Assembly: GCF_026626745.1 (NCBI RefSeq)
Contig: NZ_JAPNJW010000001.1
Location: 780,311 to 844,310, forward strand
Origin: Nannocystis sp. RBIL2
Lineage (GTDB): Bacteria > Myxococcota_A > Polyangia > Nannocystales > Nannocystaceae
DNA: 64,000 nucleotides
Direction of reading: 5' to 3'
Shown: positions 55,373 to 56,413 of the stretch, in pieces
Layout of the letters: each line of letters begins with the position of its first letter
How positions within the stretch are numbered: position 1 is the stretch's first letter
Notes under the pieces: model-generated
Seen by the model: only the letters and a program-made list of their open reading frames with translations
Databases searched by the model: none
What the model was told of the DNA's origin: nothing
Translations under genes and position numbers: made by a program

Positions 55373-55959
55373 GGGAGCCGGACTTTATGCGCGACGCGCC
55401 TCCGGCGATAGTGCGCCGCGCCGTGCACACTCTGCAGCCGCGGTCGGGCTTGCGGACCTGCAAGGTCTTTGGACCAGGTCCGCAGCTCACCCGCACGTGC
55501 GACTCGAACGCACGAGCACTTCTATGGGGATGTCCTTCGAGTCATGCCAATGCAGCGGACCGCCGAGCTCGCCGCGCGCGGACCGCCGCAGCCGGCGGCC
55601 TGGGCGGTCGGATGTCTCTCGAGACATGCGATGATTCGCCGTACCCCGTCCGCGCTCGTGGGGCCCGGCGGCCCAACCGCCGGACTCGCCGAGAGCTCCG
55701 CGGCGTCCAGTCCGCCGGGGGTTGGCGCGCGAGGCGAAGGAAAATATTTCGCGGCGAAAAGGACACATGTTCCGAGAGACATCCGAGGATTGCCGCCCCG
55801 CCACGACTGTCACCATATGTCCGCGAAGACATGCGGGGGAGCACCCCCGGAAGAACCCTCGCCGCGGTCCACCCTCGCAGGCCCCCGGCGCCCGCGGAAG
55901 GTGGTGAGGCGAGCGAGAGGATCGGTCATTCGCGGTCCCCCGGCCTGACGGCCTGGCCC

Positions 55960-56400
55960 CATCGATCCAGCGGTTCGCAGCCACACGGGCCCCCGGGGCC
56001 CCGTCTCCACCTATCCAACGGTCGCGGCCACACGGGCCCGACGGGCTGGCACCGTCTCCACCTATCCGCAGTTCGCGGCCATGCGGGGGTCGGCCGATTT
56101 GCCCCTCTCCTTCCATAAAAGTAGGAGACGGCCATACGGACCCGACGGGCCCAGGTCGCAGCCCCGCGGACCGGCCGCCCTCTCCTTCCATAAAAGTAGG
56201 AGACGGCCACGCGGCTCGACGCGCGACCCGTCTCCACCCATCCGTAGTTCGCGGCCGACCGGGCCCGCCTCCGACCATCCCAGTGACAGCCACGCGGGCC
56301 CGACGGGCGCGTCACCCCTCAAAGTCGGAGTCGGACCCGCGAGCCCCACCGGGCCGCCCCTCTCCAACCATGAACGTCGACGGCAGCGGGCCCTGCCCGT
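55960..56400. repeat. degenerate tandem array (about 8 units of 50-75 bp: GCCACRCGGGCCCGACGGGC … CGTCTCCACCYATCC / CCTCTCCTTCCATAAAAGTAGGAGAC)
   Basis: Seen directly in a 1-kb non-coding gap; the unit 'tctccttccataaaagtaggaga' is itself an inverted repeat and occurs twice identically. Confidence 0.7.
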
Positions 56401-56413
56401 CGGCGAACCGATC

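Follow-up and report, generated by a model that had tools for sequence, protein, structure and literature searches.

The non-coding gap that separates a lipoprotein gene from a HEAT-repeat gene in Nannocystis sp. RBIL2 holds two unrelated features, a local tandem array and a group of dispersed palindromes. We favour, with moderate confidence, the view that this gap is a repeat-accumulating region, in which a lineage-specific, VNTR-like minisatellite lies next to palindromes that are likely 3′-end elements. The array is most likely without a sequence-specific function. The palindromes belong to an extragenic and apparently undescribed family which, judging from its placement among genes, probably marks gene 3′ ends and has a role at the ends of transcripts.

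The window (the whole 64-kb stretch of DNA that was analysed) has a GC content of 72%, and its gene map is a GC3-based approximation. The gap, its flanking genes and the elements recognised beside the repeats are listed here.

55373-56413, no strand assigned: non-coding gap, bounded by the start of the lipoprotein gene (55372, minus strand) and the stop of the HEAT gene (56414, minus strand)
53102-55372, minus strand: lipoprotein gene, with an N-terminal MRRIVLPLPLSVALATLAAC that carries a lipobox (read from the sequence) and a weak DUF4215 match
56414-58078, minus strand: HEAT-repeat gene, with a HEAT_2 domain match
56378-56402, minus strand: inverted repeat with 9/10-nt arms and a 6-nt loop, right after the HEAT stop codon (read from the sequence)
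55736-55762, no strand assigned: AT-rich patch gaaggaaaatatttcgcggcgaaaagg, adjoining palindrome copy 3 (read from the sequence)
55404-55430, minus strand: block GTGTGCAC..GCGCACTaTCGCC, 30-60 nt upstream of the lipoprotein ATG, with invariant alignment columns in four Nannocystis species

The GC3 frame plot was flat over approximately 55300-56430, with a difference between maximum and minimum of 0.00-0.25 against 0.45-0.75 in both flanking genes. This segment, 1050 nt long, exceeds every other one in the 64-kb window that lacks codon periodicity, in agreement with the 1-kb non-coding gap of the preliminary description. ARAGORN gave no match, and promoter and terminator scans of 55000-56800 detected neither a consensus sigma-70 promoter nor an intrinsic terminator. 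The gene order around the gap (trypsin-like protease, pectinacetylesterase-like protein, a 110-aa protein, DUF4215 lipoprotein, gap, HEAT protein, two small proteins, HAMP histidine kinase) is kept across the genus Nannocystis. The HEAT protein was 97% identical to a protein on Logan contig L004, the intergenic sequence of which was the same as that of N. pusilla Na p29 (L025), and 88-90% identical to the proteins of N. punicea, N. pusilla, N. bainbridge and N. radixulma. As the DNA on either side of the gap shares 96.5-98% identity with the N. pusilla sequence, the window belongs to an N. pusilla-like strain.

The inverted repeat after the HEAT stop is a candidate for the first transcript-end hairpin. 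It overlaps the arms at 56381-56403 of three inverted pairs reported by the repeat finder (I7, I8 and I11), and part of it is deleted in the N. pusilla alignment. The AT-rich patch mentioned in the preliminary description was located, and a 50-nt stretch around it was 98% identical in N. pusilla. The invariant block, or another part of the conserved ~100 nt directly before the ATG, probably contains the lipoprotein promoter.

The tandem array sits directly after the HEAT stop, 560-1010 nt upstream of the lipoprotein ATG, and is composed as follows.

55934-56382, minus strand (that of the flanking genes): tandem array of 10 modules, with repeat families D1-D5; decomposition checked by exact concatenation
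Modules m1-m4, minus strand: m1 56382-56334; m2 56333-56288; m3 56287-56254; m4 56253-56206
Modules m5-m6, minus strand: m5 56205-56160; m5b 56159-56131; m6 56130-56078
Modules m7-m9, minus strand: m7 56077-56027; m8 56026-55979; m9 55978-55934
56027-56077, minus strand: type-A unit m7, CGCGAAC-NNN-GGATAGGTGGAGACGG, GC-rich segment, CCGTGTGGC
56103-56139, plus strand: core copy 1 of the type-B unit, CCCTCTCCTTCCATAAAAGTAGGAGACGGCCA, with imperfect inverted arms CTCCT/AGGAG; family D5
56178-56214, plus strand: core copy 2 of the type-B unit, 75 nt from copy 1; family D5

Ten modules of 29-53 nt each were distinguished by eye, and a profile built from the array units of both strains (the window and N. 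pusilla) recovered eight in the window at E<0.05, the number of units first proposed. TRF reported a period of 51 with a score of 137 (55965-56081). Three exact copies of CGTCTCCACCYATCC all fell within the array (over the entire window, 0.32 would be expected with up to 2 mismatches), as did all four copies of GCCACRCGGGCCCGACGGGC at up to 3 mismatches (0.34 expected). The type-A units (m4, m7 and m8) consist of CGCGAAC-NNN-GGATRGGTGGAGACGG, a GC-rich segment of 13-17 nt and CCGYRTGGC, and share a mutual identity of 71-82%. In the type-B units (m5 and m6) the first part is replaced by CGTCTCCTACTTTTATGGAAGGAGAGGG, the 5′ arm of which is complementary to the type-A box. Their two cores had been described as identical inverted repeats; this holds for the 26-nt core then quoted, and over the full 37 nt they are 95% identical. 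The remaining modules (m1, m2, m3, m5b and m9) are degenerate versions. A 16-nt box recurs through the array in three nearly exact copies, with 5-6 degenerate relatives.

The array unit was confined to this locus and its orthologue in N. pusilla. The unit profile detected nothing else below E=0.3 in approximately 150 kb of Nannocystis DNA, comprising the rest of the window and nine other Nannocystis loci. An exact-pattern scan with the hairpin half of the unit, covering one genome for each of 185,579 species, returned the orthologous N. pusilla locus as the sole array-like match. The other matches were single chance ones in unrelated GC-rich genomes, and N. radixulma had one isolated match unlike the unit. 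A metagenome scan with the type-B core yielded only seven chance matches, on contigs of 37-43% GC, and distant BLAST searches of plasmid and phage collections gave no match to the array. No description of the array repeats or of the palindrome family was found in the literature searched.

Aligned with N. pusilla, the array had 116 gapped columns, and its identity in the ungapped ones was 76%. Identities of the surrounding sequence, also in ungapped columns, were considerably higher.

HEAT gene: 97.2%; third codon positions 94.9%
Outer flanks: 96.5% and 98.1%
Proximal 560 nt of the gap: 91.6%
Lipoprotein gene: 90.9%

The zone of divergence has the same borders as the array on both sides. The order of the units is the same in the two strains, with one extra unit in the window (m8, which has no N. 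pusilla counterpart). Unit m7 was 61% identical to its orthologue p7, and p4 and p7 of N. pusilla were 59% identical to each other; the window paralogues m4, m7 and m8 are thus more alike than orthologous units are. Conversion or duplication within the array would yield such a pattern. The substitution density in the array was 24%, against a local neutral level of 3-9%, and conversion between units would account for this density only qualitatively. The mechanisms of array divergence could not be told apart by the transition/transversion ratio. Among the three original readings (regulator binding sites, structured RNA and decayed minisatellite), the last comes closest, except that the array looks to be actively turning over rather than simply decaying, because its identity is 76% next to flanks of 97-98% and because its paralogous units are more alike than its orthologous ones.

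The units, whose conservation in relatives the preliminary description had named as a check, were not seen beyond N. pusilla, and even there their boxes are not conserved. A gap without any trace of the array occurs in N. radixulma, in N. bainbridge and in the metagenomic lineages L048 and L059, and N. punicea and a further lineage (L050) have neither the lipoprotein gene nor the gap. Local alignments of the array with the sequence after the HEAT stop in five other lineages were no better than those of shuffled sequences (z up to 2.8). For N. radixulma, a possible ancestral module in single copy (CATGGAGCAGAGG, GC-rich segment, CGCATGGAC) past the HEAT stop was considered and then dropped, because these alignments did not rise above shuffles. 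The gaps of relatives contain amplified modules of their own. In N. radixulma (L003) there were six units, mostly 52-58 nt apart, and in L048 three 95-nt units at 98% identity together with three units of ~60 nt. In gap-bearing relatives the palindromes appear within ~30-100 nt past the HEAT stop, and several belong to units that have been amplified in tandem. Elsewhere between genes of the window, units that contain hairpins are arranged in tandem at two places, 24289-24559 (3x90 nt) and 61407-61514 (2.4x45 nt). Therefore, this gap, and these genomes generally, readily amplify short modules.

In these respects the array resembles minisatellites or VNTRs such as the mycobacterial MIRUs. Its units of ~45-55 nt lie head to tail in an intergenic region between co-directional genes and fall within the 10-100 bp range, their number and sequence differ between very close strains, and slippage or unequal recombination is their likely origin. 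MIRUs form one family at many loci of a genome. Unlike them, the array unit is confined to one locus, its units are far more heterogeneous (two types and degenerate copies), and nothing in the GC3 frame plot points to short ORFs bridging the neighbours of the array.

The four hairpins in the remainder of the gap are copies of a 16-nt palindrome, ATGTCY-N4-RGACAT.

55530-55545, no strand assigned: palindrome copy 1 (ATGTCCTTCGAGTCAT), ~150 nt upstream of the lipoprotein ATG, its position kept in four Nannocystis loci
55612-55627, no strand assigned: palindrome copy 2 (ATGTCTCTCGAGACAT), from pattern search
55767-55782, no strand assigned: palindrome copy 3 (ATGTTCCGAGAGACAT), from pattern search
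55817-55832, no strand assigned: palindrome copy 4 (ATGTCCGCGAAGACAT), from pattern search

Copies 2 and 3 form a long-range inverted pair (I2) of 21 nt that is 90% complementary (55608-55628 / 55766-55786). The first palindrome is 589 nt past the HEAT stop because the array intervenes. Likeness between the array unit and the palindrome was limited to a GTCTC/GAGAC core, without statistical support.

The palindrome is strongly over-represented. Searching for ATGTC-N6-GACAT with at most 1 mismatch, we found 31 sites in the window, where first-order Markov simulations gave an expectation of 0.76. The name “REP-like” given to the four hairpins is apt as a description of a palindrome that is extragenic and dispersed. 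The 25% of the window that lacks codon periodicity contains about 27 of these sites. The density was ~0.5 per kb in the window and 0.12-1.1 per kb at nine Nannocystis loci, whereas other loci, 301 kb in total, had 0.017 per kb. The palindrome was present in every sampled Nannocystis lineage with a HEAT identity of at least 79%, and absent from two remoter carriers of the HEAT gene (L060, with 67% protein identity, and L061, with 42%). Its absence from these two indicates that the family is specific to the Nannocystis lineages sampled.

Palindrome sites are placed unevenly with respect to genes. In the window and at six loci for which genes were called, they occurred in 16 of 23 convergent and 2 of 19 divergent intergenic regions (Fisher p=1.4e-4; the counts include orthologous regions of several species and tandem copies, so that they are non-independent and p-values are optimistic). 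The corresponding densities in intergenic DNA were 7.4 and 1.1 per kb. One of the two site-bearing “divergent” regions probably holds unannotated small genes. In co-directional intergenic regions with sites, the nearest palindrome was 9-50 nt past the upstream stop in 10 out of 15. Only 11 of 84 sites were inside genes. On the sense strand, the centre of the palindrome was purine-rich in 24 cases and pyrimidine-rich in 8 (p=0.007). The family in general thus lies shortly downstream of stop codons, as intrinsic terminators do; however, no U-tract or T-run followed the palindromes, and the combination of stem and U-tract that defines such terminators was not found in 55000-56800.

Many copies overlap in runs, in which 8-bp palindromic boxes, GRCATGYC, follow each other at a period of exactly 14 bp. 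A CATG-to-CATG distance of 14 was found for 23 pairs in the window and for 42 in 85 kb of other Nannocystis loci. Further spikes occurred at 28, 42 and 56, over a background of 0-3, and other GC-rich loci (232 kb) did not show the 14-bp spike. Six lineages have a run of phased boxes, mostly with five CATG cores, in the convergent region that separates the histidine kinase gene from its neighbour, and a seventh has a remnant. In this run the CATG cores are conserved and the spacers vary. It is thus the sequence of the arms that is conserved and not pairing alone, which points to recognition by a protein or to the spread of a repeat rather than to a plain RNA hairpin.

The palindromes share several properties with REP, BIME and REPIN elements, being short, imperfect, extragenic, high-copy, lineage-specific and clustered, with some inverted pairs and an enrichment at gene 3′ ends. 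REP elements have a conserved GT[A/G]G head beside the hairpin, and the gene for their cognate RAYT (a Y1 transposase) is flanked by REPs. In contrast, no GTAG-type head or GT[A/G]G tetranucleotide was seen in the flanks of the 31 palindrome sites. None of the 17 predicted proteins scanned (approximately 40-63 kb) is a Y1 transposase. Overlapping runs with a phase of exactly 14 bp are not known from REP or BIME elements. Terminator hairpins with a conserved sequence are represented by the DUS pairs of Neisseria, the USS pairs of Haemophilus and the mycobacterial TRIT motif. Like these, the palindrome has a conserved stem sequence soon after stop codons, often between convergent genes. It differs from them in that nothing here links it to DNA uptake, in being largely kept out of coding sequence and in the missing U-tract.

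Three other explanations of the array have been considered. It could be a set of cis-regulatory protein-binding sites for the lipoprotein gene, either an enhancer (UAS) or a nucleoprotein insulator, with a regulator that reads the GGAGACGG / CCGTCTCC box. The recurrence of the 16-nt box would suit such a role, as would its inverted arrangement in the type-B units, which is that of dimer sites. The TCTCC cores are 51, 52, 75 and 49 bp apart, roughly whole helical turns, and the downstream gene encodes a fast-evolving surface lipoprotein. However, no sigma-54 -24/-12 promoter (TGGCAC-N5-TTGCW) was detected on either strand of 55373-56413 at up to 2 mismatches, and the 17 predicted proteins scanned (approximately 40-63 kb) included no sigma-54 activator (EBP) domain or DNA-binding regulator. 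The boxes were 69-88% conserved in N. pusilla, which is below the neutral level and argues against a conserved binding site. In addition, the array is as far as 560-1010 nt from the ATG, and the four lineages without it keep both the lipoprotein gene and the promoter-proximal block. We consider a regulatory array unlikely, and the sigma-54 enhancer originally suggested found no backing. The array could also be transcribed as a functional RNA, derived from the 3′UTR or independent, for example a protein sponge of the CsrB/RsmZ type, in which repeated GGA boxes would sequester an RNA-binding protein. Sponge RNAs have a modular repeat architecture and expose multiple GGA motifs in hairpin loops, and the array resembles Csr/Rsm sponge sRNAs in having modular repeats with GGA boxes on one strand; GGAU and/or GGAGA occurs on the sense strand of nearly every unit. 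Taken whole, the array also folded more stably than its shuffles in the sense orientation (z=-3.2; antisense -1.85), because the type-A boxes are complementary to the type-B arms, and this pairing could be under selection. Single units, on the other hand, folded like dinucleotide shuffles (mean z +0.07 sense and +0.10 antisense, 16 units); the GC-rich hairpins predicted within units are what any 72%-GC sequence gives. In the predicted folds, which are unreliable for GC-rich RNA, GGA motifs were paired or between stems, and the GGAGA box of the type-B units was paired within a stem instead of being exposed in a loop. Rfam gave no match in the gap at gathering thresholds or at E up to 10 (the best, with E>1, were eukaryotic miRNA and lncRNA models), and there were no promoter- or terminator-like sites. 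The array differs from sponge sRNAs in having no Rfam match, in its lack of conservation and, as far as these folds go, in not displaying the boxes in loops. It is shared with one sister strain only and diverges fast even there. A functional RNA appears decidedly improbable, and the structured RNA of the original readings is not supported.

Under the third explanation, which is close to refuted, the array is what is left of a mobile or defence element, be it a decayed MITE, a CRISPR-like array that has degenerated or a set of attC-like sites. The array occurs in one lineage only, as if inserted, and its two 37-nt copies are 75 nt apart, a CRISPR-like period. There is also a weak inverted match at its borders (GATCGGTTCGC, 56413-56403, and GCGAATGACCGATC, 55933-55920), but this is below the threshold of the repeat finder. 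No second copy was found in any of the searched collections, and the 17 neighbouring proteins scanned had no cas, integrase or transposase domain. CRISPR arrays have near-identical repeats of 23-47 nt and unique spacers that are uniform in length. If the array is read as repeats and spacers, the spacers would be 13-39 nt long and the repeats 62-95% identical, consistent with the initial judgement that it is not a CRISPR. As for the palindromes, the four copies might instead be operators of a dimeric transcription factor acting on the lipoprotein gene, since the ATGTC-N6-GACAT geometry fits CRP-family sites (the 5-6-5 geometry of CRP/FNR-like factors). The conservation of arm sequence across loci and species, together with the kept position of copy 1, is compatible with operators. 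Yet a density of this order is too high for an ordinary regulon, the sites are enriched in promoter-free convergent regions and depleted in divergent ones, they usually follow stop codons closely, and single copies often extend to stems of 12-14 bp (for example at 53040 and 28418). It is therefore improbable that they serve as operators. A broader proposal joins the two features into an undescribed Nannocystis 3′-end system that would have shaped many sites, this gap among them, and in which a dedicated protein (a termination, 3′-end-protection, supercoil-relief or REP-transposase-like factor) would read the 14-bp-phased GRCATGYC boxes. The palindromes would also cause modules nearby to be amplified in tandem, and from one such product the array would have diverged, its variant palindrome (CCGTCTCC...GGAGACGG) sharing the GTCTC/GAGAC core. 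We regard this proposal as tentative and, as a whole, rather doubtful.

Under the account that we favour, of a minisatellite beside likely 3′-end elements, the palindrome would be sequence-specific, a bidirectional hairpin that ends or protects transcripts, and it would be recognised by a protein or have spread as a REP-like repeat. In the gap, the palindromes may separate the HEAT transcript from the lipoprotein promoter. Modules of ~50 nt would have been inserted between the HEAT stop and the palindromes in the lineage of the window and N. pusilla. They most likely arose by slipped-strand or unequal recombination and would be partly homogenised by conversion between units. If transcribed with the HEAT gene, the array would only add a GC-rich 3′ tail.

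The array is a strain-variable marker that could serve in the typing of N. pusilla-like isolates and that illustrates the speed of tandem-repeat turnover; otherwise it matters little. The phased palindrome family is the more useful lead. If a specific factor reads the palindrome, the family would reveal the way in which very GC-rich genomes without canonical U-tract terminators define the ends of transcripts, and would allow better annotation of gene ends in the large genomes of myxobacteria.

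The 8-bp palindromic box GRCATGYC occurs in runs with a phase of exactly 14 bp. These were located in the window as follows:

43849-43892, phased GRCATGYC run
46904-46933, phased GRCATGYC run
49309-49370, phased GRCATGYC run
59684-59720, phased GRCATGYC run
5399-5428, phased GRCATGYC run

Runs with the same phase were also found in five other loci (L001-L003, L048 and L051), where L003 is from N. radixulma and L048 from a metagenomic Nannocystis lineage. Distances between CATG cores peaked at 14, 28, 42 and 56 bp, a pattern that was specific to Nannocystis. Most of the runs lie directly 3′ of stop codons and, across species, the CATG cores are kept while the spacers drift. 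No description of such runs was found in the literature searched. At 43820-43950 on the plus strand there are two short stretches whose C-terminal codons resemble each other (...IGG* in one, ...LGG* in the other), and a phased palindrome run comes immediately 3′ of each. The paired stretches look like tandem small genes that are absent from the GC3-based gene map.

Two other intergenic tandem arrays were present in the window:

24289-24559, three 90-nt units with 83% matches, in a convergent intergenic region
61407-61514, 2.4 units of 45 nt, in an intergenic region of about 780 nt

The dispersed palindrome (CTGTCCTTTCGGCCAT) is present once in each 90-nt unit of the former, and the units of the latter carry a variant hairpin, GCAGTCC-TTCG-GGACTGC. 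Two independent short-read contigs terminate shortly past the HEAT stop codon, L049 after 99 nt and L059 after 103 nt. These breaks, about 100 nt 3′ of the stop, are consistent with assembly failure in intergenic repeats at that point.

Two tRNA-like sequences were detected on the plus strand:

33437-33503 (+), tRNA-like sequence, 51 bits, 49% GC
38842-38914 (+), tRNA-like sequence, 44 bits, 42% GC

Both scored above the Rfam tRNA threshold and neither was called as a tRNA by ARAGORN; their GC content compares with 72% for the genome. In one the outer acceptor pairs are missing, and in the other the acceptor stem contains mismatches. The two sequences enclose about 5.4 kb, part of which has lower GC3, and this segment is possibly an integrated element.

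The DUF4215 lipoprotein gene (53102-55372, minus strand) formed an island of divergence, with 90.9% identity to N. pusilla between flanks of 97-98%. Identity was nearly equal at codon positions 1, 2 and 3 (0.89, 0.93 and 0.91), and the gene was lacking from N. punicea and from L050. This pattern points to selection that is relaxed or diversifying, or else to allelic replacement. There is a repeat within the 5′ part of this gene:

55034-55230, 9-nt/84-nt tandem repeat whose plus strand is rich in GTC

This repeat is likely to encode a low-complexity linker after the lipobox.

At 6006-8323 in the more distant relative L060, which has 67% HEAT identity and very short intergenic regions, an ECF sigma-factor gene is followed directly by the HEAT gene, and the HEAT protein there may be a sigma-factor partner. 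Unlike in L060, the HEAT gene of the window has no ECF sigma-factor neighbour. Genes of T6SS effector/immunity type (DUF4123, Imm72, PAAR, Tle1-like) flank the locus in the window (61483-63263, minus strand), in L001-L003, in L048 and in L060. Since these flanking genes vary from species to species, the locus sits in a variable neighbourhood.
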